In this document: piece by piece, positions 5,284 through 48,141 of the stretch
How the letters are laid out: each line of letters starts with the position of its first letter
How positions within the stretch are numbered: the first letter of the stretch is position 1
NCBI GenBank assembly: GCA_964478655.1
Contig: CAYZJR010000038.1
Location: 1 to 55,916, forward strand
Reading direction: 5' to 3'
DNA from: an uncultured Candidatus Obscuribacterales bacterium
Lineage (GTDB): Bacteria; Cyanobacteriota; Vampirovibrionia; Obscuribacterales; Obscuribacteraceae
DNA: 55,916 nucleotides
The notes under the pieces: model-generated
Told to the model about the DNA's origin: nothing
The model's database searches: none
Seen by the model: the letters and a program-made list of their open reading frames with translations, nothing else
Position numbers and translations under genes: made by a program

Positions 5284-5778
5284 ATGATTTCGAGCACGAT
5301 GGGGAAAGTACTTCCGCTATCTCAGCTGTCTGACGAAATAGCGAAACTCAAACAAGCCGGCAAGAAGATAGTCACGACCAATGGCTGTTTTGATTTGCTG
5401 CATGTCGGTCACGTCCGCATCTTGAAGCAATCGAAAGAGTTGGGAGATGTGCTCGTGGTGGGCGTAAATAGCGATGCGTCTGTGTCGAAATTGAAAGGAC
5501 CGGAGCGACCGATCGTTTCTGAAAACGACAGGGCTGAGGTGTTGAGTAGTCTTGCTTGCGTCGACTATGTCACCATATTTGGTGAGGACACACCGGTGGA
5601 ATTCTTGCGTCACGTCAAGCCGAATGTTCATGTGAAAGGTGCCGACTACAAACCGTCTGACCTAGCTGAGACACCCGTGGTTGAATCTTTTGGGGGCGAG
5701 GTGAGGATTCTTAGCCTTGTTCCATCCAAAAGCACTACGAGCCTTGTAGAGCGCATTAAGGCAGACACCGAGAAGTAG
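5284..5778 (+). CDS. D-glycero-beta-D-manno-heptose 1-phosphate adenylyltransferase-like protein (RfaE domain II / cytidylyltransferase)
   Basis: TTNGCFDLLHVGHVRIL (HxGH nucleotidyltransferase motif), 164 aa like HldE C-domain; TAG stop. Confidence 0.8.
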   Translation: MISSTMGKVLPLSQLSDEIAKLKQAGKKIVTTNGCFDLLHVGHVRILKQSKELGDVLVVGVNSDASVSKLKGPERPIVSENDRAEVLSSLACVDYVTIFGEDTPVEFLRHVKPNVHVKGADYKPSDLAETPVVESFGGEVRILSLVPSKSTTSLVERIKADTEK

Positions 5779-6265
5779 AGGCGTGTCAACAATCTCGATT
5801 CCACCTCGCGGCTCTAAAGTGGGCTGAGCTGGCCGGACCCATGATCTGGATTGCATGACACGGATCTCGGCGGGCGCTAGCTCTAATCAAGCTAACCTGT
5901 TTACAGCGCGTAACCAATAGCGCTAGCTACGCGACGGAGATTTAACCTACTGAGATAGGGCCTCTTGTAAACATAAGAACGAATTATCTTTGAAGCGCGC
6001 AAGAATAGAGCGCCTTCGATTGTTTTCAAGAGATTCCATTTAGTACTTGTAGAGACGTCATCTGTTTCTTCGGCTTGGACTGAATTTGGGCTTGTAAACC
6101 CTTATCACATCTTGAATTTATCTTCTTCAGCTCTAACGTTGAGTTGCTTGATGTGATCTATCCAGCCGCTTCGTCCCAGGTTTTTCCTGGGCAGCTAGTT
6201 CGTGCAAGGCAGAGGCTAAGCGCGAACAGACGACTCCCATCTGCAGAGGCAGAGAAGGAAAGAAA

Positions 6266-7015
6266 ATGAACGAGCGTGAAACACGTCTCACAGACATCAA
6301 CGCACAGCTGACAGCGCGCGGTCTCAAGCCGTTGCGCAAGCTGGGCGATCACACTAAAGGCGAGATCGAGGCGCTGCGCGTCGTCGAGATCTTCGAGCAC
6401 TCCAAGCGCTTCTTCACTGACGTGAAGCTGGCGGTGGCATTCCCGGGCGGCAAAGAGGGCGAGTACACCATTCGCTTCAATGCCAACGGCGAAGTCTCCG
6501 ATGGCGCGGTCATCGTGGTTGTCGTCAACGGGCGTTTCGCCATCGTGAAGCAGTGGAGGTTGACCGTCGGTCAGTGGACCTACGAGATTCCGCGCGGCTT
6601 CGGCGAGAAGCTCGACAAAGCGCAGATTGCCGGTGCCCTCGGCACCATCAAGATTGGCGACCTGCCGCTGGCGACGCTTATTCGCGAACTCGGTGAGGAA
6701 GTGATGGCGCAAGCCGAAGTCACCTCCGTCACCCATCTCGGCAACGTTGCGGAAAACTCCGGAACGCACGCCGTGGCGCCGAGCTACTTCCTCGTTCAGC
6801 TGACTGTCGAGCAAGAGAAGCTCGATGCGAAGCTGAAAGGCACAGAGGACATGAAGGTGTACCTCTGGGATGCCGACGAGGTCAGTCGTCAGCTCGGCGT
6901 CAAGATTCAGGACAGTCACTCGATCGTTGCCGTTGCCCTGGCGATGCGCTACATCGAAGGACTGCCGCGCCTTCCAAAGCGCGAGGTTTGTTCTCATTCC
7001 GCCCACCAAGCCTAA
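6266..7015 (+). CDS. Nudix hydrolase (ADP-ribose pyrophosphatase-like)
   Basis: EIPRGFGE...LIRELGEEV resembles the Nudix box with an insertion; high-GC block. Confidence 0.55.
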   Translation: MNERETRLTDINAQLTARGLKPLRKLGDHTKGEIEALRVVEIFEHSKRFFTDVKLAVAFPGGKEGEYTIRFNANGEVSDGAVIVVVVNGRFAIVKQWRLTVGQWTYEIPRGFGEKLDKAQIAGALGTIKIGDLPLATLIRELGEEVMAQAEVTSVTHLGNVAENSGTHAVAPSYFLVQLTVEQEKLDAKLKGTEDMKVYLWDADEVSRQLGVKIQDSHSIVAVALAMRYIEGLPRLPKREVCSHSAHQA

Positions 7016-7089
7016 TGGCTCGGTGGGTTTCACCAGTGCTAACATTCGGCTGAGTAACACTCAGCCTTTCTCCGAAAGGATCAACGACA

Positions 7090-7806
7090 ATGGACACAAC
7101 CAAAGTTACGTTCCCCTATACCGCCGAGACTGGCATCGACGTCACGAAAGTGACCGGCTCGCAGGCGTTCATCGATTGGCTCGCTTCGGTCGATGACCAG
7201 AAGTTCGTCGTGCGCGGCGTGCATTTCCAGTCGGTCGACATGTTCGGACCGAAGGTGGGTTTCATCAAGTTCAAGGCCGACATCGTCGACGGCAAGGGCA
7301 AGTTCGTCCCCGGCATCGTCTTCATGCGCGGCGGCTCGGTCGGCATCCTCACGGTGCTGACCTGCAACGGTGAGAAGCACTCGCTGATGACGGTGCAGCC
7401 CCGCATCGCCACCGGTCGCTTCGACTTCGTGGAGATCCCGGCCGGTATGCTCGACGGCTCCGGCAACTTCGCCGGCGTCGCGGCCAAGGAGCTGGACGAA
7501 GAGGCCGGCATCAAGATCGGCCAGGGCGACCTTGTCGACCTGTCGGCAGTCGGCGGGCACACCAACGGCTTCTTCGTGTCGCCCGGCGGCACGGACGAGA
7601 CGCTACGGCTCTTCCTCTACGAGAAGGAAGTGACCGCCGACGAGCTCGCGAAGCTCAACGGCAAGCTCACGGGCGTGCAGGGCGAGGGCGAGCAGATCAC
7701 CCTCAAGATCATGCCCCTCGACGACATCTGGAAGATCGCCGACGGCAAGACCTGCGTCGCCTACCTGCTCTACCAGAAGCTCCTGGAGCAGCGCGCGGCG
7801 AAGTAA
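7090..7806 (+). CDS. Nudix hydrolase (ADPRase/NudF-like)
   Basis: EIPAGMLDGSGNFAGVAAKELDEEAGIK matches Nudix box GX5EX7REUXEEXGU. Confidence 0.65.
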   Translation: MDTTKVTFPYTAETGIDVTKVTGSQAFIDWLASVDDQKFVVRGVHFQSVDMFGPKVGFIKFKADIVDGKGKFVPGIVFMRGGSVGILTVLTCNGEKHSLMTVQPRIATGRFDFVEIPAGMLDGSGNFAGVAAKELDEEAGIKIGQGDLVDLSAVGGHTNGFFVSPGGTDETLRLFLYEKEVTADELAKLNGKLTGVQGEGEQITLKIMPLDDIWKIADGKTCVAYLLYQKLLEQRAAK

Positions 7807-7901
7807 GGCGTGTCCGATGCGCTATCAAAAAACGAGGGCGGCGGCATCGTTGTCGTCGCCCTACGTTTGCGCAAGAAAGCTTCCAAGGAAAAATCGAAGT
7901 C

Positions 7902-8957
7902 ATGTCAACATCAACGAAAGAACACATCCTCGCCTTCGTCGATGCGCCCGACCCGGACAATTTCGTCCAGGTCATCGCGCTGTGCAAGCTGTTTCCGAAC
8001 GCTGAGGTGCACGTGGTGCTCACCGGACGTCCGGTTCGCTTCAACGCGACGAAGGAGCACGAGAAGTGGGAGTGGGACATGCGCAGCTCGTCGATGGCTC
8101 AGCAAGCCTCGGCGCTTCGCATCAAGAACTTCCTGCGTCACTTCGGCATCTCGGTGACGCGGGTCTTCGACGGCGGCATCGCACCCAGAACGTTGGTCCC
8201 GCACCACGTTCACTTCCAGGAGTACTACAAATTTCTCGATGTCGACCCGCTCGCCGCGATCGCGCATCCCGAGTTGGAGCCGCAGGAAGATCTGGTGAAG
8301 CTCATCCTGTCGTTCGACCCGGGCTCGGTGCGTGTGGCAGTCGGTGGTCCGATGACCGGTCTGGCCCAGGTCATTGCGCGGCATCCCGAAGTGGTGACGC
8401 GCTTCAAGGAAGTGCACGCCATGTTTGCAACCTGGGGCAAAGTCGATCTCATGCAGTTCGGCGACGAGCCCCGCGGCGCGATGCAGTTCAACGTGCACTG
8501 CGACCCGCAGGCTGCCTACGCAGTTCTGATGGGTCTCGAGTGTCCGGTATACCTGATGCCCACCGAGGTGACTCGGGTTCTGGATATCGGGTTTCTGAAC
8601 GCTCAGAAGCTGCGTGAGTTCTTGCCCGACAACCAGGGCAGCCGGGCGCTGTACCACCTGTACGCGCTCTGGTACGACGCGGCGGTTCGCCCGCGTCAGG
8701 CAACCAACCCCAACGAGTACATCTTCATCCACGACCTCGTGGCCGCCTTCAGCCTCGCCGAAGAGCTCCGCAACTCCATCTACAAGGTGGTGCCCGTGGA
8801 GATCACTTCCGTGCCGCACCTCGCAAACGAGCGCGCCGACTGGGGCAAGGTGATCATGAAGGAGACGGCGACGCCGGGCAACCGCTTCGCGGCTGTCGGG
8901 CTCCTCGAAGGTGGAGCACAGCGCTATCTGGACGCGCTGAAGAAGGTGCTCTCGTAA
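7902..8957 (+). CDS. nucleoside hydrolase (IU-NH)-like protein with divergent Asp cluster
   Basis: N-terminal FVDAPDPDNF resembles the IU-NH DxDxxxDD motif, where the final DD is NF here; later NVHCDPQAA; 351 aa. Confidence 0.5.
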   Translation: MSTSTKEHILAFVDAPDPDNFVQVIALCKLFPNAEVHVVLTGRPVRFNATKEHEKWEWDMRSSSMAQQASALRIKNFLRHFGISVTRVFDGGIAPRTLVPHHVHFQEYYKFLDVDPLAAIAHPELEPQEDLVKLILSFDPGSVRVAVGGPMTGLAQVIARHPEVVTRFKEVHAMFATWGKVDLMQFGDEPRGAMQFNVHCDPQAAYAVLMGLECPVYLMPTEVTRVLDIGFLNAQKLREFLPDNQGSRALYHLYALWYDAAVRPRQATNPNEYIFIHDLVAAFSLAEELRNSIYKVVPVEITSVPHLANERADWGKVIMKETATPGNRFAAVGLLEGGAQRYLDALKKVLS

Positions 8958-9106
8958 CTAACGCGCTCCCGACTAAGCGGGAGGCGTGGCACCACATTTA
9001 GTGCTGCCGGAGGGCGCCTTCGGGTGCCCTCTCTATCTCAAACTCTCCAGAAACGAGACCCCGAGTCGCCAGTCCAACTAACGATTCGGGGTTTGAGGAA
9101 AACAAC

Positions 9107-9586
9107 ATGAACTCTCTGACTCGAGTGCCGGACGCTCTTCGCGTGCTGGTCGAGCACTTCATGCAGCAAATGGGCATCGGCGGATACGGCTGTGCCGTGA
9201 CGGCAATCGCGGGACCTGACGGCGATGGCGAACTCCATCGCAAGTTCGGTCACGAGGTCGTCGTCGAGTGCAGCACTTCCCGCGACGGAATTCTTCGCGC
9301 CAAGTTCGGCTACCTCAAGCCCGAGGAGCTGGCTGCGGCGGAGAACCCCGACCTGTCCATCGGCATTCGCTACAACCCTGCAGCGTGTGCCAAGCGCTTC
9401 CGGCAGCCGATGCCGGCGGCGCTCGACTGTGCGGCCAGAGCCCTGCAGCACAACTACTTCCGCGTTGGTGCGGAGTACGAACCCAAAACCGAAGAGCTCC
9501 GCATGCTCTTCGTCCGCGGCAACTGGCACCCCCAGGTCAATGACATGACCCAGGGCGTGCTGGTCGATGTCCGCTGGATCGTGTAA
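9107..9586 (+). CDS. hypothetical protein
   Basis: Co-oriented high-GC ORF with GC3 bias; no motif recognised. Confidence 0.45.
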   Translation: MNSLTRVPDALRVLVEHFMQQMGIGGYGCAVTAIAGPDGDGELHRKFGHEVVVECSTSRDGILRAKFGYLKPEELAAAENPDLSIGIRYNPAACAKRFRQPMPAALDCAARALQHNYFRVGAEYEPKTEELRMLFVRGNWHPQVNDMTQGVLVDVRWIV

Positions 9587-9699
9587 GTCTCGAACGAAAA
9601 CAACCATTCTTCCTGTCGCCGACGGGTGCAGCTGGAACGGTCCAGCTGCACGCCGTCGGAATTTAACTCATTTAGGTTGCTCGGCAACCAGGAGTCATC

Positions 9700-10143
9700 A
9701 TGGAGTACAAACTCGAACGGTTCGAGGCCGCGCGTGCACATCTGTTTCGTGCCTACGAGCAAGCAGTCGACCTGATCCAGAAAGCACCTTGCTTCAAGCA
9801 GTTTCCGGCGAATGCCGACGAAGCCACCATCCTGTTCGCCACTGCGCTCGCCCGTCAGGCAGAGCGGTTGTGCGTGGACGGCTTCAGCGCCATCTCGGTT
9901 CTGCCGGCTTGCTATCACGAGCCGGTGAGCGAGATGCACAACATCTACCTGGACGTGCAGTACGAGGCGGAAGCCGGCAAGAAGCAGGTCTCGGTCGCTG
10001 CCTGTGCGGCGGCGGGTCTTACCACGGCTGAGCAGTTCGCTCGGCTGGCGTTCGACCTCACCAGCCGCGCCACCCGGTGCTTGAACGGGGATGAAACCGT
10101 GGACGGTCGTGAGATTCGTCACGGAGATCTCTGGGACAAGTAA
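9700..10143 (+). CDS. hypothetical protein
   Basis: Co-oriented high-GC ORF with RBS-like aggag upstream; no motif recognised. Confidence 0.45.
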   Translation: MEYKLERFEAARAHLFRAYEQAVDLIQKAPCFKQFPANADEATILFATALARQAERLCVDGFSAISVLPACYHEPVSEMHNIYLDVQYEAEAGKKQVSVAACAAAGLTTAEQFARLAFDLTSRATRCLNGDETVDGREIRHGDLWDK

Positions 10144-10231
10144 GGTTTCTCGAAAACAAAAACAGTAAACTACTTCCGGCGGCGCATAAGTCATGTTGAC
10201 TGCTGCCGGAAGTCTTCTACGAGGAGCTAAC

Positions 10232-11164
10232 ATGGCATCCGAAGAATTCAGAAAACTCCTCTCCATGCTTTTCAAATCGCATCCGTGGCACGGTGTCTCA
10301 CCGGGCGAACGCGCACCACATGTGGTGCGATCGTACGTCGAGATCGTCCCCACGGAGGCAGTGAAGCTGGAGTTGGACAAAGCGACTGGTCACCTTCATG
10401 TCGACCGGCCGCAACGTTTCTCATCGATGTGTCCGACTCTGTACGGCTACATCCCTCTCACCTACTGTGGCGAAGAGATTGCGAAGCGCTGCATGCAGCG
10501 CACGAAACTCCGCCGCGTCGAAGGTGATGGCGACCCGCTGGACATCTGCGTTCTCACCGAGAAGGACTTCGCTCACGGGGACTTGCTCCTCCAGGCGCGT
10601 CCCATCGGCGGTCTGCGCATGGTGGACAAGGCGGGCTCCAAGCCGTCGCAAAAGGGCTCTTCGCCCTATCAGGCGGACGACAAGATCATCGCGGTGCTGG
10701 AAAACGATGCCACGTACGGTGACATCACCGACATCTCGGAGTGCCCTCCGGCCGTCATCGAGCGGCTGAAGCACTACTTCGAGAGCTACAAGCGGGCCCC
10801 TGGTGACAACGCCAAGAAGCCCACAGTGCAGATCATGGAGGTCTACGGTCGCGATGAAGCGCAGCGCGTGATTCGCGCCGCGCAGGCCGATTACCTCGCC
10901 GACTACGGCACGCAAGAGCAGCGGCTCGACCGGCTCTATGAGCTGTTGTGCAAGGGGCTGATGGAGAAGCTCCTGGCTGACGACGCCGATCCGGCGTTGC
11001 TCGTCAAGATTCTCCAGAAGGCGGCGCAGAGCGGTGCCCTGTCCAAGGTGCTGGGTGGCAACGTGGGTCCGGCCCGCAAGCTTCCCGGCAAGCCGTCGGG
11101 CAAGCGCAAGCCTGCGCCTGCACGCAAGCGCGCCGGCACACCGCGCGCCAAGAGCAAGAAGTAG
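10232..11164 (+). CDS. ppa: family I soluble inorganic pyrophosphatase with Lys/Ala/Pro-rich C-terminal tail
   Basis: HPWHGV, YVEIVPT, VDR, YGYIP, EGDGDPLDIC, DKIIAV and HYFESYK conserved PPase blocks; tail KLPGKPSGKRKPAPARKRAGTPRAKSKK; start at MASEEF with gaggag RBS. Confidence 0.8.
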   Translation: MASEEFRKLLSMLFKSHPWHGVSPGERAPHVVRSYVEIVPTEAVKLELDKATGHLHVDRPQRFSSMCPTLYGYIPLTYCGEEIAKRCMQRTKLRRVEGDGDPLDICVLTEKDFAHGDLLLQARPIGGLRMVDKAGSKPSQKGSSPYQADDKIIAVLENDATYGDITDISECPPAVIERLKHYFESYKRAPGDNAKKPTVQIMEVYGRDEAQRVIRAAQADYLADYGTQEQRLDRLYELLCKGLMEKLLADDADPALLVKILQKAAQSGALSKVLGGNVGPARKLPGKPSGKRKPAPARKRAGTPRAKSKK

Positions 11165-11388
11165 GAAGCGAGGCACTACAACTGGTGCTGCCCTCGCTCC
11201 CTTCCATCAACAACACAAAACACGGAGAACATTGCATGAACACCTTCGTTCTTCCGGCAGCGGGTGCGGTCTTCTAGGGACCGTACCGCGACTGCCCGGC
11301 TCAGTCAAAAGACTGACTGTCGCTCCACTCTGGTGCGGCAGTAATCGTTAGCCGGCCACGGTGCGGTCTTCTGAAAGGAGACTGCATT

Positions 11389-11634
11389 ATGGCTCGTTCG
11401 TATCGTCACTCGCCGTTCATCGGCTTCTGCTCGCACTCCGACAAGCCCGGCAAGGTCATCGCCAACCGTCGCCTTCGCGCCCGTGTGCGCCAGGCGATCG
11501 TCAACTGCCGCGATTTCGACAATCTTGTCGTGCCCGTGCTCCGCGAGGTTTCTGATGTCTGGGACTTCCCCAAGGATGGGAAGGGCCGCATCAAGAAGTC
11601 CTGGCCGGAGTACGCGAAGCTCATGCGCAAGTAG
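11389..11634 (+). CDS. small basic hypothetical protein (81 aa)
   Basis: Strong RBS aaggag 8 nt upstream; GC3 bias; TAG stop. Confidence 0.5.
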   Translation: MARSYRHSPFIGFCSHSDKPGKVIANRRLRARVRQAIVNCRDFDNLVVPVLREVSDVWDFPKDGKGRIKKSWPEYAKLMRK

Positions 11635-11886
11635 ACAACCGCCACCACTTCGCAAGAAGCGGTGGCGAGTGACTCCCTAACACTGGTTCGAGCGCCGGTC
11701 CGCGCACCGCATTCGGTGCGGGCGTGGGCCGGTGTCTCGAACTTTCGGGGTCTCAAAGCCCCATCATCTTCCTACCTTGCCCTGCAATACGACGCAATCT
11801 GCGTCGCTGGCTAAAGTCCGTGGCCGCTCTGCCACCAGTAAGCCAGGCTTGGGTGAGAGGACCAATGAGCATAAGGATTTCCAAAC

Positions 11887-12504
11887 ATGACCGTTCACAA
11901 CATCTATTTCGACCGACAGTCCGTCGCCGACGGGCCCGACATGCCCGGCCGCCTCCGCGTGGAGCTCAAGGATCTCAACCAACTTCCCGGCGACGTGAAG
12001 ATGACGGTGGAGCACTCGAGCAACTCGCACTGGGGCCGCCTCGGCCACTGGCATGAAGTCTCCTGCACGACCGAGGGGCTTCGCCAGGCAGCCATCGCGC
12101 TGGTGGAGTTCCATCAGATGGTCGCCCGTAAGCTCGGGCTTCCCGAAGTGCTCGACTTCGCGTACGACTATGCGGAAAACGTCCAGGGCGAACAGACCTT
12201 CGTCTGCCGCGTGATCGTGAGCTCTCCTCTTCCGTCGTGCATGGTCACGAAGGAAATGGACGTCTCCGATTTCATCTGGCGCGTGCGTTTCGCAATGTAC
12301 GAAAAGGGCACCGACCCTGCCAAGGCGAAGCTCTTCCGTGAATCCGATACCGCATACGATGCGCTTCGGTTCGCGGTGATGCAGCTGCTCAAGGCGAAGG
12401 TGCTTCACCTTCGTGCCCTCAGGCTGCCCGACACGTGCAACTGGTCGGACGTCGCCAAGGCGATTGAGTCGCGCGCCTCAAAGCGCTCGAGGTCGTCGAA
12501 GTAA
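11887..12504 (+). CDS. hypothetical protein with basic C-terminus
   Basis: RBS aagga upstream; GC3 bias. Confidence 0.5.
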   Translation: MTVHNIYFDRQSVADGPDMPGRLRVELKDLNQLPGDVKMTVEHSSNSHWGRLGHWHEVSCTTEGLRQAAIALVEFHQMVARKLGLPEVLDFAYDYAENVQGEQTFVCRVIVSSPLPSCMVTKEMDVSDFIWRVRFAMYEKGTDPAKAKLFRESDTAYDALRFAVMQLLKAKVLHLRALRLPDTCNWSDVAKAIESRASKRSRSSK

Positions 12505-12603
12505 GAAGGAGCGCTGTTGCGCTCATGTCAGCAGCCGAGTAAGACTGTGCCGCTGACCTAGGATGCAGTCCACCGGTCCAACTGGGACCAAAGAGGATTT
12601 GGT

Positions 12604-13038
12604 ATGACCTACCACATTCAAGTCGCCTTCTCGACGTGCACCCACTGGAGGAATCATGCACTGCTCGTCGAGCGTCTGGGAGTCGCTTTTCCGGCAGCCG
12701 AGGTTCATCTCGAATCCTTCGACGAGCCGTTGAGCCTCCTTCAGTTCGCCACGTTCATCGAGAGGCTCGAAGGGGGCTATCATGCCGACAGGATGCCTGT
12801 CGTCTTGAGGGTGCCTGCAACCTTCGAGCAGTTTGCCGATTTTCTGGAAGCTTTGGCCAAGGAGCACGATTTCGTCGCCTCCACCGTCAACGTCTTCGAT
12901 CCTAGCAAGGTGAATGAGTACTTCAAGGTGATGAATCTGAAGTCGCTCATCCCCATCTTGCGTACAGCCGCTCAGATGTTTGCTCCATCACTCGGTCCGG
13001 AAGAGCTCATGGAGGTTCAATCCAAGGCTCAGCGGTGA
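12604..13038 (+). CDS. hypothetical protein
   Basis: RBS-like aagagga upstream; GC3 bias. Confidence 0.45.
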   Translation: MTYHIQVAFSTCTHWRNHALLVERLGVAFPAAEVHLESFDEPLSLLQFATFIERLEGGYHADRMPVVLRVPATFEQFADFLEALAKEHDFVASTVNVFDPSKVNEYFKVMNLKSLIPILRTAAQMFAPSLGPEELMEVQSKAQR

Positions 13039-13098
13039 CGGCGTCGACAGCTGACCGTAACCCGTTCGAGCACCGGTCGCAGCACGCCGCTGCGACCG

Positions 13099-13722
13099 GT
13101 GTCTCGGACTCTCAACTTGGCTTTTTGCGAGATAGCCTACATGACTGACAAACCATCGGGTTCGCAGCAACCGGGGCCTGGTCCAAGTAAGATTGCGACC
13201 TTGCTCGTCGGTTGGTTCTTGTATCCCGTCGGTGATTTGATCGGGCAACTGATCATGGGTCACGTCAGCATCGCCAGACTGGTTGCAGTCGCCTTGATTG
13301 GCGGATTGCTTTACCGATTCGAGGTACCGGCTTGGTTTCGCTTCATCGATGGAATTCGCGTCACGCGGACGAACGGACCACTGAGGTTGTTCGCTCGTAC
13401 GGACCAAGAGCCAGCGCCGCTCAACTGGGTGGGTCGCATGCTCATGGCCATGTTGTACTTCAACCCGCTTTGGATTGCTCGCCACCTCTTCATCATCATG
13501 GTGGTGACTGCTCCGTCGTTTGGTGCAATCGCTTGGGGCTCTACCCTTGCTGCTGTGCTTTCCCTTGGGTTGGCGTCGTTCGTTACCAATCTTCCCATCT
13601 CATTGATTGGTAATTACATCGTTCAGCAAAGACTTTCACCACAAAACCGCTTCATCGGCAGTGCCACTCTCAGCGGTGTCATGGTGATCAAGTACGCGAT
13701 CGAGTACCGACTCTTCCACTGA
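13099..13722 (+). CDS. integral membrane protein (4-5 TM)
   Basis: Hydrophobic segments; true start may be the Met at 13141. Confidence 0.45.
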   Translation: MSRTLNLAFCEIAYMTDKPSGSQQPGPGPSKIATLLVGWFLYPVGDLIGQLIMGHVSIARLVAVALIGGLLYRFEVPAWFRFIDGIRVTRTNGPLRLFARTDQEPAPLNWVGRMLMAMLYFNPLWIARHLFIIMVVTAPSFGAIAWGSTLAAVLSLGLASFVTNLPISLIGNYIVQQRLSPQNRFIGSATLSGVMVIKYAIEYRLFH

Positions 13723-13875
13723 TGAAGAAGCTGATCTGATAACCGTTCAAATCCGATTCTTTCAATTGCGCTGCTCAAAGCCCCTGGTACCGGACGAAGT
13801 GTGTCCGGACCGGGGCCTGGGCTGGTGTTTTCTTTCCGCCTTCGCTACTCCTGTATGTAATACTATACATAAGAG

Positions 13876-13926
13876 TATAAAAAAGCAAGAGAAAACGCAG
13901 ACAGGCTGGTGCCTGCTGCGTTTCTC
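13876..13926 (-). terminator. rho-independent terminator for the kef-like gene
   Basis: gagaaaacgcag...ctgcgtttctc hairpin; on the minus strand it is followed by a UCUUGCUUUUUU tail. Confidence 0.55.
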
Positions 13927-13988
13927 CGGGAGTGTTGCCGACACCCCCTGCCACTCACATCCTTCGAACTTCTCGCTTGCTATTCTGG

Positions 13989-15980
13989 TTAGCTCGCGTT
14001 GGTTCTAAAGAACAGAGCAGCCTCAGTCAGCTGATCGTGCCGACCGAGTACGATGACGGCATCACCTGCGTTGATGACATCGGTTGACCGCGGATTAATC
14101 GTCTCCGTGCCGTTCTTCGCCTGAATGGCGACGACGGTTGCACCTGTCTTTGTTCGCAATCCGCTCTCGACCAGGCTCTTGCCGTCAACGGCACTGCCCG
14201 GCTCTGCGCGGAAAACTGACATCTCCAGGTGCGAAGGCACGTGCTGCAAGCCATGTCCCGGGCGGAACGACTGATGCAGAGCCACGCTGTACTTGAGCCA
14301 ATCGGCTTTCGCCTCTTGGATAAGCGTGTCCACGGTTTCATCGGCAACGTAGTACCTCTGGAGAACCCGCGTGAGGATCTCCACCGCCGAAACGAACTCC
14401 TCTGCCACGACTTCATGCGCACCGGCTTTGACGATTGCCTCGAGGTCGGGCAACTCGCGAGCGCGAGCGATGATGTGGATGTCGCGGTTTAGGCGGTGAG
14501 CCATCTCCGACGCTTGACGCGAGGAGTGACCGTCCGCCTGCGTGAGTGCAAGCACCCGCGCGCGGGCGATGCCCGCATGCAGAAGCACTTGCTCGTTGGT
14601 GGCATCGCCGTAGAAGAACGTCAGACCCCGCTTTCGCCCTTTGCGGACGGCGGAAGGATCGCTGTCGACCACGACGTACTTGATGCCCATCTTGTCGAGA
14701 ACCTTCGCCAGCTCCTGGCCTTTGACGCCATAGCCGGAGATGATAACGTGGTCTCTAATAGCCTCATCCGACGGCGCGGTGCTCGAAGAATCCGTTCCCA
14801 GCTTGCTTGCCAGTCGCGGAACTCGGCGCCCGAGCCATTCGAACAGCGATGGACCGAACTGGCACAAAGCCGGTGTGCACATCATCGAGAGAATCGCCAC
14901 CGCCAGAAAGATCTGGTTGGTGTGCGCGTCAATGACGCCATTTTCCAGCCCGATCTTGCCCAGTACGAACGAGAACTCGCTCGCCTGCGACAGTGCCAAG
15001 CCGGTCAGGACCGCAACCTTGAATGAGTGGCCCATGACGCGAGTGGCAAGACCTGCCACCACCGTCTTGAGACCAATCACCAAGATCAAGCAGCTGCCAA
15101 CCATCAGCGGCATCGACACCAGGGTTCTGATGTCGAACATCATACCGATCGAAACGAACACGAGGCAGTTGAACAGCTCGCGGAACGGCACGATTTCACC
15201 CAGCGCCTGATGGCTGTACTTGCTCTCGGAGAGCACCAACCCAGCCACGAACGCGCCAAGTGCCATCGACAAACCGACGTGTGCCGTTGCTGCTGCCATG
15301 CCCAGGCTCAGAAAGATGATGGTGAGGATGAACGCCTCACGCTTGCGCGTCTGAGCCACGTGGTCGAGAAACCAAGGCAAGCAGTAGCGAACGACGGTGA
15401 AGGTGAGAACAAGGAAGATGAGCGCCTTGCCGCCAATCCAGGCGAGGTCGGTGAAGTGCACCTCCTGCCCGCCAAGAAATGGCGTCACCAATACCATCGG
15501 CACGATGCACAGATCTTGGAAGATCAGAATGCTCAGGGCGTTCCGCCCATGCACGGCATCCAACTCGCGTCGACCCTCCAAAACTCGCAGCACAAGCGCG
15601 GTTGAACTCACCGACAAGAGCATGCCGATGAACACCGCCAAAGGCAGCGACATGCCGAAGAGGTAGGCGAGACCGGCTGCGCAAGCCAGTGTTCCACCGA
15701 CTTGCAGGGCGCCGCCGATGAGCAGAAACCGCCTCATGCGCATGAAGTGCGGAATCGAGAACTCGATGCCCAGCGAGAAGAGCAACAAGACGACGCCGAT
15801 TTCAGCGAGCAGGTCGAGCTGCTTCACGTCGTCGACGAATTTGAATCCGTAGGGTCCGCAGATGACGCCCGTGATGAGGAAGCCGAGAACCGCAGGCAGC
15901 CTCAGTTTGTGAAAAACGACTACGGCTACGAGGCCGAGTCCAAAGACCACCAGAAGGTCTTGAAGGAATGTGTGTGGCAT
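13989..15980 (-). CDS. CPA2 monovalent cation:proton antiporter (Kef/YbaL-type) with C-terminal RCK (TrkA-N/TrkA-C) domains
   Basis: 663 aa; about 12 TM N-domain; ISGYGVKGQELAKVL Rossmann motif; C-terminal TrkA-C-like beta domain. Confidence 0.85.
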   Translation of the reverse strand: MPHTFLQDLLVVFGLGLVAVVVFHKLRLPAVLGFLITGVICGPYGFKFVDDVKQLDLLAEIGVVLLLFSLGIEFSIPHFMRMRRFLLIGGALQVGGTLACAAGLAYLFGMSLPLAVFIGMLLSVSSTALVLRVLEGRRELDAVHGRNALSILIFQDLCIVPMVLVTPFLGGQEVHFTDLAWIGGKALIFLVLTFTVVRYCLPWFLDHVAQTRKREAFILTIIFLSLGMAAATAHVGLSMALGAFVAGLVLSESKYSHQALGEIVPFRELFNCLVFVSIGMMFDIRTLVSMPLMVGSCLILVIGLKTVVAGLATRVMGHSFKVAVLTGLALSQASEFSFVLGKIGLENGVIDAHTNQIFLAVAILSMMCTPALCQFGPSLFEWLGRRVPRLASKLGTDSSSTAPSDEAIRDHVIISGYGVKGQELAKVLDKMGIKYVVVDSDPSAVRKGRKRGLTFFYGDATNEQVLLHAGIARARVLALTQADGHSSRQASEMAHRLNRDIHIIARARELPDLEAIVKAGAHEVVAEEFVSAVEILTRVLQRYYVADETVDTLIQEAKADWLKYSVALHQSFRPGHGLQHVPSHLEMSVFRAEPGSAVDGKSLVESGLRTKTGATVVAIQAKNGTETINPRSTDVINAGDAVIVLGRHDQLTEAALFFRTNAS

Positions 15981-16268: not shown

Positions 16269-18734
16269 TTGATTTCAGATGTAATGACGGTATTTCCCAC
16301 TTCTTCTGATATCCTCATTACGCAAGCTGCGATAGGCAAGCCCTGTAAGGGATGTACGGGCCGGAGTTTTGTTGTGAAATTCAAAAGCGAAAGGTTGATT
16401 CTGGTTGCGTCAACCGTCGTTTTGGCGCTTGGTGCATGCACAGCATTTGTAAATCAACGCTCGGAAGCAGTTGACAAAATTCTCAATGTGGCGCAGTCGG
16501 ATGCGATCAATGGTGACAACGGCAACGCAGATAAGCACTTTCAACAAGCAATCAGTGAGGCCGAAAAAATTGAAGGGAACCAATTTCCATTGGTCGATGC
16601 GCTCAATAAATATGGCAGTTTTAAAAAGCAGTGTGGGCAGAAAATCCCCAGTAAAGCCATTTTTCAGCGAGCGCTAACGATCTGCAAACAGTTTGTCGAT
16701 GCTGACTCGACTCACGACATTTCGCATAATGAGAGTGCGAAGAACTGGATGAGACAGGCTCGGACAGCCAATCTTGGGTTGGCTGAGTGTTTTGCCGATG
16801 ATGGATCTTATCGCGTGGCCGAACGATATTTTAAAGAGACGATAAAGCTTGAGGAACGTTTGGAGAGTGTCTCCAAAGCTGACGATCGCGGTGCCTCGGC
16901 GGGAACGACGGAGAGTCTGCGCTCCACAAAGACGTTGCTGCAAGACATGTTGGACAGAGAAAGACACGAGCGCACGCTACTGGAGACAGCAATTGGAGCC
17001 GACAACGTAGGTTCTAGTATTCGAGGGAAAAACCCAAGAGCTGAGTTTGTTGGCAGAATCAAAAAGGCCCTCGACGAGCCGGATCTGTTCAAGCGCGAAA
17101 AGCTCATAGCTGCACTTGCAGACGAGGCACTCAAGAAGTATGGGCCGCGCGAAGTGGAGTACCGGCTCGCCTTAGGGAAGTTGTGGCTTACGCAGTGCCA
17201 GAACGCACAGTGGCAGAAGTCGGTCGCTATGCTTGATGCGGACCTCGAGCTCTACCCGGTATCGCTTGAAAAATTGGACGACGATGACACCCTTACTCTC
17301 ATCGAAAATGTCGAATTTTTCGTAGAAGACACTTCAATGATCTTACTGTCGTTGCGTGAGTTGAAGCGGTACGATGAGGTGCTCAAACGCGGGCAGCAAG
17401 CGCAGTTGGTTGTGCAGCGATCGCGGGTTAGCTGTCCGGTGCCGATGTCTACTGTATTGCTGGAGATGTCGCGCACCAATTCGGAACTGAAACAGTACAA
17501 AGAAGCGCAGAGGCTATTGGAAGAATCTCTGAAGCTGGTTCCGCCGATAGAGTTTATGGCAGAGCGACGAGTCGAGCTTTTGAAGGAACTGCAGCGCTGC
17601 TATCGCGACCTTAACAACTGGGCAAAGGTTAGGACGACATCGGAAGAGGGGCTGCAGGTCATCAGCCAGTATCAATTGAAATCGCCGCATGAATTGGAGT
17701 TTCTCGCGGCTCTTGATGTGGCATTTGTTCGCCTTGGCGAAACGGTCTTGGCTGATTCTGTCTATCACCGAACTCTCGATCAATACAAACTGAAGGGCGA
17801 CTTTGGTTCGGCAAGAGTGTTTTATGAGCGGGTTGCTTCTATGAGGCGAGAAGCCGGTGATAAAGCCGGCGGTTACGACACTATGAAAGATCTCGAAGAG
17901 TTTGTTGCATGCAGTACTGAACCACAGCGAGAAGTCTTGCTGGCAGAGATTCTAAAGACGAAATGTGCATGGCTTGAGGCTGATGGCCGTAGAGATGAAG
18001 CCGTGCAAGCGATAATTCGCAGCGCTGAACTTGCCACTAAATATGATGCCTCGCCGATAATGGCTGCTGCAAGACTTAACGAGGCTGAGGCAGTTTGCAA
18101 TCGAGCAGGTCGCTTTGATTTGTCTGAGAAGCTTGGACGCAAAGCCGTTTCGCTCTGTGAAAAGGGCTCCGACAACGATGGTCCGCTTGTAAGCACCTTG
18201 CTGCAGCTCTCTTACCCTTTGACGCAGCTGAAGAAATATGGCGAGCAGCGAAAGGTTGCAGAAAGAGCGCTTTCAATTGTTCAAAGCAGCAAGAACAAGA
18301 ACATTCATCCATCGCATCGTCCTTCCTGTTACGTGCGTCTTGCAAATGCGGAACTCATGCTTGCTTCAAAAGGCGGTGCAGTAAAGGACCCGTCGAAGTT
18401 AGACAAGGCGCTGAAAGACCAAGCCAGTGCGCATCAAAAAACGGCAATTGAAATGCTCTCAACGAGCGAGTTTCAAAATGATCCGGACTTGCGTCCTTCC
18501 ATCGCCGAAATCGCTTTCAACTACTCGATTCTTGGTGAGTATGAGGAGTCGCTTCGCTATTTCGAGAGATTCGCTAAAGAGTATCCCGAGCAGCAAGATC
18601 CGTTTACCTTGGAACAACTAGAAGCCTATGCCGATGTGCTGAAGAAACTTCATCGCAATGACGAGGAACAGTCGATGCGCAAGCGGATCGCCAGTATGAA
18701 AAGAGTGCTTGAGCGAGCACTGGCAGTACATTGA
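16269..18734 (+). CDS. large all-helical TPR-like repeat protein, probably a lipoprotein; true start uncertain
   Basis: LILVASTVVLALGAC lipobox-like segment near the N-terminus; low-GC codon usage; TGA stop overlaps the first tandem repeat copy. Confidence 0.55.
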   Translation: MISDVMTVFPTSSDILITQAAIGKPCKGCTGRSFVVKFKSERLILVASTVVLALGACTAFVNQRSEAVDKILNVAQSDAINGDNGNADKHFQQAISEAEKIEGNQFPLVDALNKYGSFKKQCGQKIPSKAIFQRALTICKQFVDADSTHDISHNESAKNWMRQARTANLGLAECFADDGSYRVAERYFKETIKLEERLESVSKADDRGASAGTTESLRSTKTLLQDMLDRERHERTLLETAIGADNVGSSIRGKNPRAEFVGRIKKALDEPDLFKREKLIAALADEALKKYGPREVEYRLALGKLWLTQCQNAQWQKSVAMLDADLELYPVSLEKLDDDDTLTLIENVEFFVEDTSMILLSLRELKRYDEVLKRGQQAQLVVQRSRVSCPVPMSTVLLEMSRTNSELKQYKEAQRLLEESLKLVPPIEFMAERRVELLKELQRCYRDLNNWAKVRTTSEEGLQVISQYQLKSPHELEFLAALDVAFVRLGETVLADSVYHRTLDQYKLKGDFGSARVFYERVASMRREAGDKAGGYDTMKDLEEFVACSTEPQREVLLAEILKTKCAWLEADGRRDEAVQAIIRSAELATKYDASPIMAAARLNEAEAVCNRAGRFDLSEKLGRKAVSLCEKGSDNDGPLVSTLLQLSYPLTQLKKYGEQRKVAERALSIVQSSKNKNIHPSHRPSCYVRLANAELMLASKGGAVKDPSKLDKALKDQASAHQKTAIEMLSTSEFQNDPDLRPSIAEIAFNYSILGEYEESLRYFERFAKEYPEQQDPFTLEQLEAYADVLKKLHRNDEEQSMRKRIASMKRVLERALAVH

Positions 18735-18833
18735 GCGCTGACAGTACATTACATTGACCGCTGACAGGAACATTAGCCGCTGACAGTACATTGAGCGCTG
18801 ACAGTACATTAGCCGCTGACAGTAACATTGAGA
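18723..18833. repeat. tandem array of about six 18-19 bp units (GCTGACAGTACATT + 4 nt)
   Basis: Read directly in sequence: GCTGACAGTACATT, GCTGACAGGAACATT, GCTGACAGTACATT, GCTGACAGTACATT, GCTGACAGTAACATT, each with a gagc/agcc spacer. Confidence 0.8.
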
Positions 18834-18834
18834 C

Positions 18835-18940
18835 GAACTGCAGTTCCCATTTTTGGAGAAAATGAGAACTGCAGTTCCCTGCGCTCGAACTCCCACGAAC
18901 TGCAGTTCCCATTTCTGGAGAAAATGAGAACTGGAGTTCC
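18835..18940. repeat. two 45-bp direct repeats, each carrying two copies of the perfect palindrome GAACTGCAGTTC
   Basis: gaactgcagttcccatttttggagaaaatgagaactgcagttccc, 17-nt spacer, then gaactgcagttcccatttctggagaaaatgagaactggagttcc. Confidence 0.8.
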
Positions 18941-19464: not shown

Positions 19465-21606
19465 ATGTTCGATCAACTCGTAGGTCAGCTCTGGTGGCTG
19501 ATCCCCGCCATTCTCGGTGGCGGCACCTTCCTGTTCCTTCTCTTCACGAAGTGGCTCGTCAACGTCGGCGGTACCGAAATCGCCATCACCGAGCGTCGCT
19601 TCGTCGGTAAGGAACTCGATCCCAGCCGTGCTTTCGCCGTAGAAGGTGAAGTCGGCGTCCAGGCGCGCTATCTGGCCCCCGGCCTGAAGCCCGTCGCCTG
19701 GCCCATCGTGCGTGTCATCGCGCGTGAGCAGTTCACCGTCATCGATGCCAACGAACTCGGCATCATCGAAGCCACCGACGGCGCGTCACTGCCGTCCGGT
19801 CGTATCTTCGCGGAAGACGCCGCCGGCGAGCACCACGACAACTTCCAGGAGCCGCTTGCGTTCCTGAAGAATGGTGGTATCCGCGGTACGCAGCTGCGCT
19901 TCCTCACCAACGGTCAGTTCAAGATCCACCCGCGGCTGTTCAAGCTGACGAAGATCCAGAAGACCGTCGTGCCCGAGGGCATGATCGGTATCGTGTCCGC
20001 CGCTGACGGCGCCCCGCTCGATCCCGGCCAGCTGGTCGGTCGCTCGGTCCAGGGTCACGACAACTTCCAGAAGGCGGAAGTTTTCCTCCGCAACGGCGGT
20101 CAGAAGGGTCCGCAGGTCGACTTCCTGCGTCCCGGTACCTACAACATCCACACCGGCATGTTCAAGGTCGAGTTCCAGAAGGCTGTGAAGATCGGCGACG
20201 GTCAGATCGGCGTGGTCGAAGCGCTCGGTGGCGAGGCAATGCCCGTTGGCGACGTCGTTGCCGACAGCCCGAACGGCCACAACAACTTCCAGAACGGCGA
20301 AAAGTTCCTCAGCGACGGCGGCAAGCGTGGTCCGCAGACGGCGATTCTCGCCCCCGGTACTTACTACATCAACCCCTTCCTGTTCACGGTCCAGACGCGG
20401 ACTCAGACCGTCGTGAAGCAGGGTGAAGTGGCTGTGCTCATCGCCAACCACGGCAAGGACCCCGCCAGCGAGCCCCAGGCGCCAGTGAACCCCGGCCCGG
20501 TCGAAGGTCAGGCGCAAGATCCGGAAGAGACCCGTCTCAACCAGGAGAACCGTCAGCGTCACGTGGTGCCCGCCGGCTATCGCGGCATCCAGAAGGATGT
20601 CCTCGGCCCCGGTCGCTACAACATCAACCCGCTCGTCTACCAGGTCGTGATCGTTCCGACGACCACGCGCTCGGTGGAATGGGCTGGTGCCGCAGGCAAG
20701 GGTAACGCCGGCAACTTCGATCCGTTCGAGGTCGTCTCCAACGACGGCTTCCCGATGAAGGTCGAAGTGCGCTGCCAGTACCGCGTGCTGCCCGAGAATG
20801 CCCCGTACGTCATCGCCAAGCTCGGCTCCATCGAGGAGCTGGAGAAGAACGTCATCGACCCGCAGATCGACGGTATCTTCCGCGCCGAGGTGTCCAAGTC
20901 GCCCGCCATCGCCTATCAGCAGAAGCGTGCTGAAGAGCAGAAGAAGGCGGAAGACGAAGTGCGCGGCGACCTGGCGAAGTACAAGGTGGAAGTGGTCTCG
21001 GTCATGATCACCAACATCCACCTGCCGGAACAGCTGATGAAGACCACTCAGCAGAAGAACCTCGCTGAGCAGGAGAAGTCGATGTACGACGCGAAGCGTG
21101 ACGCCGAACAGCAGCGCATCGCGTACGAGCAGACTCGCGCCCAGGCGGAGAACCAGGGCAAGATCATCGAGGCCAAGACGGGCATCGAGATCGCCGAGCA
21201 CAAGGCTGCCCAGAAGGTCAAGGAAGCGGAGGGCGAGGCCCAGCGCATCCTGAAGGTCGCCGAAGCGGAAGCGAAGCGTACCGAGCAGATCGGTAACGCC
21301 GAAGCGGCGGTCATCGAGAGCAAGGGTAAGGCGCAAGCCGAAGCCTATCGCCTCGGTGGTCAGGCGCTGACCCCGGGTGGTCTGACGTCGGTCGAGGTGG
21401 TCAAGGCGATCGCTGCGGCTGGTCTGAAGATCGTTCCCGACGTGATGGTCACCGGCGGCGGTGACGGCGACGGCGGCGCCAACGGCGGCCTCGTCAACCT
21501 GCTGCTCGCCAACGCCGTGAAGAACGGTCTCGGTGGGTCCGCGACGGCCGCGGCTCCGGCCGAGGCGCCTGTTGCGCCGGCTGCCGAAGGCGGCGAGAAG
21601 TCCTAA
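19465..21606 (+). CDS. flotillin-like SPFH/band-7 protein with N-terminal TM and four internal repeats of about 75 aa
   Basis: Repeated HDNFQx...FL(K/R)NGGxRGxQ...PGTYxINP modules; C-terminal coiled-coil AEAEAKR...AEAY typical of flotillin/YqiK; start at MFDQLV with aggag RBS. Confidence 0.75.
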   Translation: MFDQLVGQLWWLIPAILGGGTFLFLLFTKWLVNVGGTEIAITERRFVGKELDPSRAFAVEGEVGVQARYLAPGLKPVAWPIVRVIAREQFTVIDANELGIIEATDGASLPSGRIFAEDAAGEHHDNFQEPLAFLKNGGIRGTQLRFLTNGQFKIHPRLFKLTKIQKTVVPEGMIGIVSAADGAPLDPGQLVGRSVQGHDNFQKAEVFLRNGGQKGPQVDFLRPGTYNIHTGMFKVEFQKAVKIGDGQIGVVEALGGEAMPVGDVVADSPNGHNNFQNGEKFLSDGGKRGPQTAILAPGTYYINPFLFTVQTRTQTVVKQGEVAVLIANHGKDPASEPQAPVNPGPVEGQAQDPEETRLNQENRQRHVVPAGYRGIQKDVLGPGRYNINPLVYQVVIVPTTTRSVEWAGAAGKGNAGNFDPFEVVSNDGFPMKVEVRCQYRVLPENAPYVIAKLGSIEELEKNVIDPQIDGIFRAEVSKSPAIAYQQKRAEEQKKAEDEVRGDLAKYKVEVVSVMITNIHLPEQLMKTTQQKNLAEQEKSMYDAKRDAEQQRIAYEQTRAQAENQGKIIEAKTGIEIAEHKAAQKVKEAEGEAQRILKVAEAEAKRTEQIGNAEAAVIESKGKAQAEAYRLGGQALTPGGLTSVEVVKAIAAAGLKIVPDVMVTGGGDGDGGANGGLVNLLLANAVKNGLGGSATAAAPAEAPVAPAAEGGEKS

Positions 21607-24274: not shown

Positions 24275-24393
24275 TTCCGTGCGAACCTACCTCGAATGGG
24301 GGAGATCGTCTGCTTTGCTAGACAATCTTCGGACCCTCTTGATAAGATGAGATTGGACTAATGTTGCGTCGCTGCTGCGCAAAGGTGGGTTAC

Positions 24394-33939: not shown

Positions 33940-34016
33940 GCTGCCTTACGTCTCAGCGGTAGAGCGCGGGTCTCTAAAACCCAGGGTCGTGGGTTCGAAT
34001 CCCACAGGCAGCACCA
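33940..34016 (+). tRNA. tRNA-like gene with CUA (amber-reading) anticodon, encoded CCA and atypical D-arm junction
   Basis: 7-bp acceptor GCTGCCT/AGGCAGC, discriminator A, CCA; canonical T-arm GTGGG-TTCGAAT-CCCAC; D-loop AGCGGTA with GG; anticodon arm (c)GGGT-CTCTAAA-ACCC(a) gives U33 and A37 with anticodon CTA at 33974-33976. Confidence 0.6.
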
Positions 34017-46220: not shown

Positions 46221-46237
46221 CCTCAACTAAACAGCTT

Positions 46238-47395: not shown

Positions 47396-47401
47396 TGTCT
47401 T

Positions 47402-48124: not shown

Positions 48125-48141
48125 CCTCAACTTCTCATTGT

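Follow-up and report, generated by a model that had tools for sequence, protein, structure and literature searches.

What does the run of ten co-oriented, GC-rich genes in contig CAYZJR010000038.1 of an uncultured Candidatus Obscuribacterales bacterium encode, and does it belong to the genome in which it lies? We analysed a stretch of 55,916 nt of this contig (hereafter, the window), in which positions 6266-13722 hold ten open reading frames (ORFs) on the plus strand, in agreement with independent gene calls for the same contig in public assemblies; we numbered them g1 to g10 from 5' to 3' (Table 1). A sequence-only reading of this DNA had recognised two Nudix proteins, a nucleoside-hydrolase-like protein and an inorganic pyrophosphatase among them, and had proposed that all ten genes form one dedicated pathway acting on metabolites of the nicotinamide adenine dinucleotide (NAD) or ADP-ribose type, plausibly on a horizontally acquired island. 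On the basis of protein families, fold, conservation, gene context and codon usage, we favour, with moderate confidence, the reading that the conserved core of the cluster is a putative pyridine-nucleotide/ADP-ribose recycling module in a native segment of the chromosome. This core would be a divergent, uncharacterised form of a known NAD/nucleoside recycling module.

The protein encoded by g3 is a divergent member of the inosine-uridine nucleoside hydrolase (IU-NH) fold. When its AlphaFold model (pLDDT 84.7) was compared with the Protein Data Bank (PDB) using Foldseek, the matches were all IU-NH enzymes, comprising more than 100 nucleoside hydrolase chains aligned over nearly the full length, with E-values down to 2.8e-13, template modelling (TM) scores of 0.6-0.7 and 14-19% identity. 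These matches include the nicotinamide riboside (NR)-cleaving enzymes yeast URH1p and the Trichomonas vaginalis riboside hydrolase (PDB 8rih, 8oi7; E about 1e-11, TM 0.6-0.66), which share the fold and which hydrolyse NR for Preiss-Handler salvage (PMC11241417, PMC10474468). By analogy, g3 might play the same role, namely supplying nicotinamide to the Preiss-Handler route. However, it is only 16-18% identical to these two enzymes, has DAPDPDN in place of DxDxxxDD and Gln for the usual Glu in the (E/Q)FN motif, carries about 30 extra residues in its N-terminal half, and is covered by the Pfam model over residues 129-302 only. The recognisable motifs of g3 are the variant N-terminal DAPDPDN (residues 14-20) and the conserved GGPMTG (148-153), QFNVxCDP (195-202) and IHD (276-278). 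In an alignment of 21 homologs, D14-A-P-D17-P-D19-N20 is invariant, as are T152, N197, H277 and D278, and the canonical DXDXXXDD aspartate cluster, which binds Ca2+ and supplies the general base, is not present, both the DD pair and the first Asp being missing. The D14...D19 spacing equals what we take to be that of D10...D15 in canonical nucleoside hydrolases, and we presume that D14, D19, T152, N197, H277 and D278 are candidate counterparts of the canonical catalytic residues. We found 185 homologs of g3; among the matches listed, identity is 58-98% and those that are named are labelled Obscuribacterales/Melainabacteria, across which the relatives of g3 are 58-74% identical.

Directly upstream of g3, g2 encodes a Nudix hydrolase for which ADP-ribose pyrophosphatases (ADPRases) make up all the best matches among PDB sequences, though these are weak (E=0.002-0.05; top match Thermus Ndx4, E=0.0017). 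It resembles the ADPRases (E. coli NudF, Thermus Ndx4, M. tuberculosis ADPRase; YffH/AdpP, TIGR00052) in that its EIPAG lead-in, its REUxEE glutamates and its SPGGTDE loop (residues 164-170; SPGFTDE in Ndx4) align with Thermus Ndx4. It differs from them in its Nudix box (residues 119-141, GMLDGSGNFAGVAAKELDEEAGI), which keeps the EE pair and the GU end but has Gly for the first Glu (Glu7) and Lys for Arg, and its scores against the NCBIfam ADPRase/YffH models NF008003 and TIGR00052 are 18 bits each, with cut-offs of 248 and 79.55. Counted against the E. coli NudF sequence as we presume it to be, g2 also carries a 9-residue insertion before the SPGG loop. The product of g1 is still more divergent. 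Its residues 126-148 form a candidate, near-canonical Nudix box GTIKIGDLPLATLIRELGEEVMA (G-x5-D-x7-REUxEE), with Asp for Glu and an intact REUxEE, but a phmmer alignment with AtNUDT1 sets the Nudix box in a different register. Comparison of g1 with PDB sequences returned nothing significant. We also considered paralogy between g1 and g2, or among the proteins of no known family, and dropped it since no similarity was found. The remaining enzyme, g6, is a standard family I inorganic pyrophosphatase (NF001886, 289.1 bits with a cut-off of 247; PF00719, 130.9 bits, E=4.5e-38). Its residues 226-310 make up a C-terminal extension of about 85 residues that ends in a Lys/Arg/Pro-rich, histone-tail-like segment and varies in length between relatives, the proteins being 271-365 amino acids (aa) long. 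All four enzyme calls of the sequence-only reading are borne out, by Pfam matches (marginal for g1), by the PDB sequence matches for g2, by NF001886 for g6 and by Foldseek for g3.

We scanned genomes, one per species, which gave 45 loci; most are labelled Obscuribacterales/Melainabacteria, and a handful come from metagenome-assembled genomes (MAGs) that are otherwise labelled. All window genes were compared with these loci by tblastn, and the ORFs of all loci were clustered and the recurrent families annotated. The order g1...g7, g10 is kept in L007 only, without g8 and g9, and g7 and g10 were found in no other related locus. Beyond L007, only g2, g4, g5 and g6 recur near g3. A g2 homolog adjoins g3, on either side, in L007, L011, L018, L019, L021, L024, L037, L041 and L047; g4 lies directly beside g3 in L007, L025-L030 and L035, and g5 in L007, L026-L028 and L035, both in two clades; and a g6 homolog lies 1.3-6.2 kb from g3 in L007, L020, L031, L033, L034, L036, L040 and L044. 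Homologs of g1 with 65-72% identity occur on metagenome contigs with neither g2 nor g3 nearby, in L055 beside a CNT nucleoside transporter and in L056 at 3-5 kb from a Gln-dependent nadE and an isochorismatase gene. The proposal of one dedicated ten-gene pathway is therefore not supported: the full order recurs in a single near relative minus g8-g9, g1 homologs lie apart from g2 and g3, g4 and g5 are limited to certain clades, g7-g10 were not seen near g3 beyond L007, and the pyrophosphatase is linked with g3 in no more than about 9 of the 45 related loci.

Two further families recur beside g3. F1 is a second Nudix family, with a membrane N-terminus and a Nudix domain nearest to those of NadM-Nudix ADPRases and NrtR. 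A derivation of g1 from F1 was considered and dropped, as no relation was found. F3 is a second IU-NH-like family with a near-canonical DPGxDxDD motif; it lies next to g3 relatives in L033 (11254-12519) and L049 (6305-7402), and also in L018, L021, L024, L037 and L047. Its settings are thus genomes of the free-living Obscuribacterales type and, in one case, an NAD operon under NrtR control. F3 is like the XopQ/HopQ1 nucleoside-hydrolase-like type III effectors in matching the NCBIfam XopQ model (E=7.5e-47), but its 160 bits are far under the cut-off of 500 and it shows no sign of secretion. It is absent from this window, in which we found neither F1 nor F3 genes, and g3 itself has neither a XopQ model match nor BLAST similarity to F3. 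The pyrophosphatase also recurs near g3, as do CorA, a NadE-like gene, a cation-efflux gene and a TldD/PmbA pair. In most loci with sufficient flank, g3 is adjoined by a Nudix gene of the g2 or the F1 type, down to 47-49% identity of g3, and this is so in at least four gene orders, among them g3-g2-F3, g2-F3-g3 and F1-g3-F3-g6. As this adjacency runs over the whole g3 tree in so many orders, it favours selected linkage over frozen synteny alone.

Several of these relatives stand inside operons for NAD metabolism. In L049, a single strand carries nrtR (NrtR_WHD, E=8e-27), an isochorismatase gene of the nicotinamidase type (pncA), pncB (NAPRTase, E=3e-44), g3, F3, a weak Nudix gene and, last, nadE (E=3e-44). 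The order in L042 is nrtR, pncA, an ORF with cytidylyltransferase-like and NAD kinase domains, pncB and g3; that in L037 is pncB-g3-g2-F3; and that in L041 is nadK, an uncharacterised ORF, pncB, ..., g3, ..., and a g2-like gene. In five further loci, a nadE-like gene lies 5-8 kb from an F1-g3-(F3)-g6 arrangement. The long ORF between pncA and pncB in L042 (6574-8316), which joins a NadD-like part to an NAD kinase, is either a true fusion or an artefact of ORF calling. Cyanobacterial NrtR operons have the composition pncB-nadD-nrtR-nadE, and ADP-ribose is the effector of NrtR (PMC2330246, Rodionov et al. 2008). The loci L049, L042, L037 and L041 resemble them in placing g3 relatives inside runs of nrtR, pncA, pncB, nadK and nadE, with ADP-ribose-type Nudix domains in the system; the regulons described in PMC2330246 include no IU-NH-type hydrolases. 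The cluster in our window differs from such operons, as it sits beside a pyrophosphatase and orphan genes and not beside any nrtR, pnc or nad gene. The idea that these enzymes act on NAD/ADP-ribose-type metabolites has nonetheless gained support from the relatives of g3, g2 and g1 that are found within or close to operons for NAD salvage.

Under the reading that we favour, g2, probably helped by g1, would split ADP-ribose and/or NAD(H) at the pyrophosphate bond to give AMP plus ribose-5-phosphate or nicotinamide mononucleotide (NMN). The product of g3 would then cut the N-ribosidic bond of nicotinamide riboside or nicotinate riboside (or of NMN or ordinary nucleosides), whether produced by the cell or imported, and free the base. 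The freed nicotinamide or nicotinate could enter the Preiss-Handler route (PncA, PncB, NadD and NadE), encoded elsewhere in the genome, and g6 would hydrolyse the pyrophosphate (PPi) released by PncB, NadD and NadE. Both the substrates and the order of the reactions are what we infer from the families and their context. To our knowledge, the gene for the NMN/NR glycohydrolase step of the bacterial pyridine nucleotide cycle is poorly assigned. A more speculative extension, which we hold to be rather improbable, is that the g3 family is a lineage-restricted IU-NH clade (DxPDxDN) that provides this NMN/nicotinamide-riboside glycohydrolase downstream of the Nudix enzyme, alone or together with its XopQ-like partner, with g4 and g5 as new accessory or regulatory subunits.

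A number of observations weigh against the recycling module. The substitutions in the Nudix box of g2 and the marginal Nudix character of g1 bear on the step assigned to these two proteins, and g3 lacks the canonical DxDxxxDD, nor can its substrate be read from its sequence. The window harbours no pncA, pncB, nadD, nadE or nrtR. It also contains no site resembling an NrtR box, including in the spacer 5779-6265; the best score was 12.4 with a crude position weight matrix made from three candidate boxes of L049 and L042 (a 21-bp palindrome with a GT-N7-AC core), which themselves score 21.6-22.9. The NAD-operon context comes from more divergent relatives of g3 (47-68% identity), and the contigs concerned belong to MAGs with heterogeneous labels (Gammaproteobacteria, Patescibacteria, Uhrbacteria), with the binning taken as deposited. 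About 12 Obscuribacter-type loci carry g3 without any of these partners. As the loci come from limited lineages, part of the linkage may have been inherited as synteny without being selected. Moreover, g6 is a housekeeping enzyme, and its position beside g3 may be incidental. Finally, the hairpins that occupy the spacers of the cluster (see below) could be terminators 3' of every gene, which would make each gene its own transcription unit.

Whether the cluster is foreign was judged from its composition and codon usage, computed within the window only. The GC content is 60.1% over 6266-13722 and 61.0% over 6266-12504, compared with 54.6% for the remaining window, and the GC content at third codon positions (GC3) falls from 0.92 in g2 to 0.71 in g9 and 0.64 in g10, the lowest of the ten, so that GC declines toward the 3' end. 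The description of ten co-oriented genes with more than 60% GC and strong GC3 bias is accordingly accurate, and the cluster is the longest unbroken series of high-GC3 genes in the window. The surroundings had been put at roughly 47-50% GC, but the window is a GC mosaic in which blocks of 58-64% recur at 14-16, 19.4-24, 27.5-29.5, 37.5-41.8 and 49-52 kb, and the adjoining Kef-like gene itself has 59%. The spacers that bound the cluster do have a lower GC content (5779-6265, 48%; 13723-13988, 51%), as had been stated, but they are not specially AT-rich, since 43-53% is normal for the intergenic DNA of the window. Outside the cluster, 8 of 37 window genes have a GC3 of at least 0.75, and the high-GC3 genes there include those for the Kef-like transporter, the Band_7 protein, M48 and S53 peptidases and a MoxR ATPase.

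The relative synonymous codon usage (RSCU) of the cluster correlates with that of ten other high-GC3 window genes at r=0.96, and with that of low-GC3 genes at r=0.61. The bias is codon-specific, disfavouring NNA, GGG, AGG and CGA but sparing GGT and CGT, and in this it resembles selection on codon usage and not a foreign base composition. In other genomes, relatives of g3 mostly exceed the local median GC3 (0.76 versus 0.52 in L010, 0.70 versus 0.43 in L013, and 0.70 versus 0.49 for a further relative and its surroundings). Since they are GC3-rich whatever their neighbours, the bias is a property of the gene and not of an inserted block. Among the annotated genes adjoining the cluster we saw no integrase or transposase, and there is no flanking tRNA gene; the sole tRNA gene called in the window sits 20 kb away, and the only part of the cluster with direct repeats on both sides is g8-g9. 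Judged from these features, positions 6266-13722 belong to the native chromosome of an Obscuribacterales (Vampirovibrionia/'Melainabacteria') bacterium and are not foreign DNA, and the high GC content of the cluster is the codon-usage signature of one native gene class. As a separate observation, the genes of the window fall into two codon-usage classes, with GC3 of about 0.5 and about 0.8 and RSCU correlated at r=0.60 between them; the low-GC3 class is rich in TPR and hypothetical genes, and the high-GC3 class in enzymes and transporters.

These results can be set against other explanations of the locus. It is possible, though in our judgement unlikely, that the genes serve general nucleoside and nucleotide-sugar housecleaning, with g2 and g1 as broad NDP-X pyrophosphatases, g3 as an ordinary ribonucleoside hydrolase that scavenges base and ribose, and their adjacency to one another, and in some relatives to NAD genes, as inherited synteny. 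Promiscuity is typical of IU-NH and Nudix enzymes, all specificity classes are equally represented among the structural matches of g3, one g1 homolog neighbours a nucleoside transporter, many loci have g3 alone, and the window is devoid of NAD genes and NrtR boxes, all of which fit such a role. Yet the Nudix-g3 pair survives several rearranged orders at deep divergence of g3, pncB lies directly upstream of g3 in four loci, two of which have full nrtR-controlled NAD operons, and a nadE-like gene lies near g3 in another five. A turnover of ADP-heptose or other ADP-sugars, which we consider very unlikely, would instead link the cluster to the RfaE-domain-II gene up1, whose product and PPi it would handle, the Nudix enzymes removing surplus ADP-sugar and the pyrophosphatase pulling the adenylyltransferase reaction. 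The up1 protein does score above the cut-off of its model, the gene precedes g1 by 0.5 kb in the window and likewise in L007, its distance from g3 in L011 is 6.7 kb, and among Nudix proteins g2 falls into the ADP-sugar pyrophosphatase-like branch. However, a 487-nt spacer parts up1 from g1, the GC3 of up1 (0.57) places it in the low class, just 3 of the 45 related loci link it with g3, no further heptose-pathway gene is present among the annotated window genes, and no role is left for the N-ribohydrolase g3.

We find it hardly credible that the ten genes are a horizontally acquired island encoding a single pathway dedicated to some modified nucleotide metabolite. The unbroken length of the high-GC3 series, the lower-GC spacers at its edges and the six proteins of no known family had suggested as much; but the codon usage is that of the other native genes, the distribution of g3 over the order looks vertical and its codon bias is gene-intrinsic in other genomes, no mobility gene or flanking tRNA gene was seen, and the gene set is not kept as a unit, g8-g9 being missing from L007 and g1 lying elsewhere in other genomes. 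Nor do we give more than a very slight chance to a role in phage defence or counter-defence, conflicts in which Nudix and nucleoside-hydrolase-like enzymes are known to take part; the module would then break down signals derived from NAD, for example isomers of cyclic ADP-ribose, with the small variable ORFs as accessory cargo. Nucleoside-hydrolase-like (XopQ/HopQ1) and Nudix effectors do manipulate NAD-derived molecules (PMC9963460), relatives carry a XopQ-like paralog alongside g3, and the small orphan genes are variable, one segment being a repeat-flanked indel. However, PADLOC returned matches for none of the ten proteins (E<=0.1), no TIR, SIR2, ART or cyclase gene is nearby, the conservation of g3 over an order (58-74%) and its strong codon bias are typical of housekeeping genes as opposed to defence islands, and the context in relatives is biosynthetic NAD salvage under NrtR.

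Returning to the putative recycling module, the question arises of how its genes are transcribed. They had been described as tightly spaced, but their spacers measure 74-252 nt, each with a stable GC-rich hairpin, as opposed to 6-41 nt within the BatA/MoxR-type operon at 46.2-55.8 kb, which we used as an internal standard for a tight operon. The best 60-nt windows of the cluster spacers have free energies of -22 to -49 kcal/mol, that of the g7-g8 spacer being -49.3 kcal/mol. These hairpins have no T tract, and comparable ones stand 3' of many further window genes. Less than 40 nt separate the hairpin from the start codon in several of the cluster spacers, which leaves no room for a promoter there and makes hairpin-punctuated read-through plausible. 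A scan for sigma-70 promoters gave matches at chance level, terminator-like structures are modestly more numerous than in shuffled sequences and none of them coincides with an intercistronic hairpin, and Rfam models run over 5600-14100 revealed no riboswitch and no other RNA family. We infer that the cluster genes are probably read through as one punctuated transcript, in which the hairpins between the genes may partly terminate transcription or give rise to differential mRNA stability.

The six proteins encoded by g4, g5 and g7-g10 had been considered to belong to no recognisable family, and this was confirmed: they have no match in Pfam, NCBIfam or PADLOC, and the PHROGs database gives marginal matches for g5 and g7 alone. 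PDB sequence searches with g5, g8, g9 and g10 returned non-significant matches only. An exhaustive profile search with g4 recovered just 8 representatives, including one 373-aa tandem-like form and no informative fusion. For g5 we found only 4 close homologs, its single family-level match being the marginal PHROG (E=0.004), and in L026, L027, L028 and L035 the gene directly upstream of g3 encodes a distant homolog (18-28% identity). Both g4 and g5 are order-restricted proteins that accompany g3 in some clades, and they may be accessory partners. No relatives of g7-g10 beyond the genus were detected in the data searched; g7 and g10 are genus-level additions, and g8-g9 is a strain-variable segment.

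The g8-g9 segment can be delimited by comparison with L007, where g3 is 94% identical and about 70 nt stand in place of 11705-13128 of the window. The breakpoints of this indel fall inside two copies of a palindrome of about 58 nt, both of which align with the single copy in L007; no copy was found in the other loci. The segment looks as if it had been inserted here, or else lost from L007 when the repeats recombined. We also considered whether the hairpins are integron attC-like or a dispersed REP family, and dropped both, the palindrome being confined to the two window copies and the one in L007; its GTT...AAC ends are, moreover, presumably oriented wrongly for attC.

Some features elsewhere in the window deserve mention in their own right (Table 1). 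A well-formed tRNA gene, whose CUA anticodon matches the amber codon UAG and whose CCA end is encoded, was called tRNA-Pyl by ARAGORN and scores 52.5 bits with the Rfam tRNA model. Reassignment of TAG was considered on account of this gene and rejected: TAG terminates 12 of the 46 window genes, so that the tRNA looks suppressor-type and not like a sign of a reassigned codon. Two short tandem-repeat arrays, with units of about 18-23 nt (CTGACAGTACATT...) and 31 nt (ACGAACTGCAGTTCC...), lie in a 730-nt spacer upstream of the Band_7 gene. One gene on the minus strand has weak or faint matches to calpain-type Peptidase_C2 and EF-hand, a eukaryote-like domain pair. Two adjacent paralogs of about 365 aa have no Pfam match and share 73% DNA identity over 300 nt.

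Table 1. Location of the cluster genes g1-g10, their associated elements and other features of the window
Feature	Position	Strand	Remarks
up1, RfaE-domain-II gene	5284-5778		TIGR02199 (rfaE_dom_II), 202 bits, cut-off 181.5; would make ADP-D-glycero-beta-D-manno-heptose
g1, marginal Nudix-domain protein	6266..7015	+	249 aa; Pfam PF00293, 22.7 bits, cut-off 21.1
GC-rich intercistronic hairpin 3' of g1	7048..7066	+	23 nt before the g2 start codon
g2, ADP-ribose/ADP-sugar pyrophosphatase-like Nudix hydrolase	7090..7806	+	238 aa; Pfam PF00293, 30.0 bits, cut-off 21.1, residues 84-215
g3, divergent IU-NH-fold member	7902..8957	+	351 aa; Pfam PF01156, 60.2 bits, cut-off 34.2, E=3e-16, residues 129-302
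g4, orphan	9107..9586	+	159 aa; invariant motifs YLK..EL.AA..PD.SIG.RY and VRGNWHPQ
g5, fast-evolving helical orphan	9700..10143	+	147 aa; conserved C-terminal motif G(D/E)ET(V/I/L)xG...HGxLxxK
g6, family I inorganic pyrophosphatase	10232..11164	+	310 aa (323 aa from alternative start 10193); NCBIfam NF001886, Pfam PF00719
g7, small basic protein	11389..11634	+	81 aa; GC3 0.82; marginal PHROG match, E=0.003
Palindromic element, copy 1	11686..11743	+	GTTCGAGCGCCGGTC...GGCCGGTGTCTCGAACT; left edge of the g8-g9 indel, in the g7-g8 spacer
g8, in strain-variable 1.4-kb segment	11887..12504	+	205 aa; GC3 0.82; no family or PDB match
g9, in strain-variable 1.4-kb segment	12604..13038	+	144 aa; no family match, no significant PDB match
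Palindromic element, copy 2	13064..13110	+	GTTCGAGCACCGGTCGCAGC...GCTGCGACCGGTGTCTCGGACT; right edge of the g8-g9 indel; 13-nt perfect arms
g10, predicted multi-pass membrane protein	13141..13722	+	193 aa (207 aa from alternative start 13099); hydrophobic segments in translation
Kef-like gene	13989-15980	-	Adjoins the cluster; 59% GC, GC3 0.74
Two tandem-repeat arrays	18720-18940		
Band_7 gene	19465-21606		
Adjacent paralogs	24361-25458 and 25668-26768	+	
tRNA gene, anticodon CUA	33940-34016	+	
Peptidase_C2/EF-hand gene	35348-36670	-	Matches weak or faint
Compact BatA/MoxR-type operon	44994-55810	+	VWA, TPR, AAA_3 MoxR and DUF58 genes

If the recycling module is real, g3 and its relatives would offer a candidate for the N-glycosidic cleavage step that joins the breakdown of NAD and ADP-ribose to Preiss-Handler resynthesis, and this candidate would stem from a poorly studied, uncultured sister lineage of Cyanobacteria. 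The XopQ-like hydrolases that accompany g3 in its relatives would likewise be tied to housekeeping NAD metabolism, beyond virulence. For genome scans, the locus carries a caution: the 60% GC blocks of this genome belong to a native class of codon usage, and GC mosaicism alone is therefore no evidence of islands.

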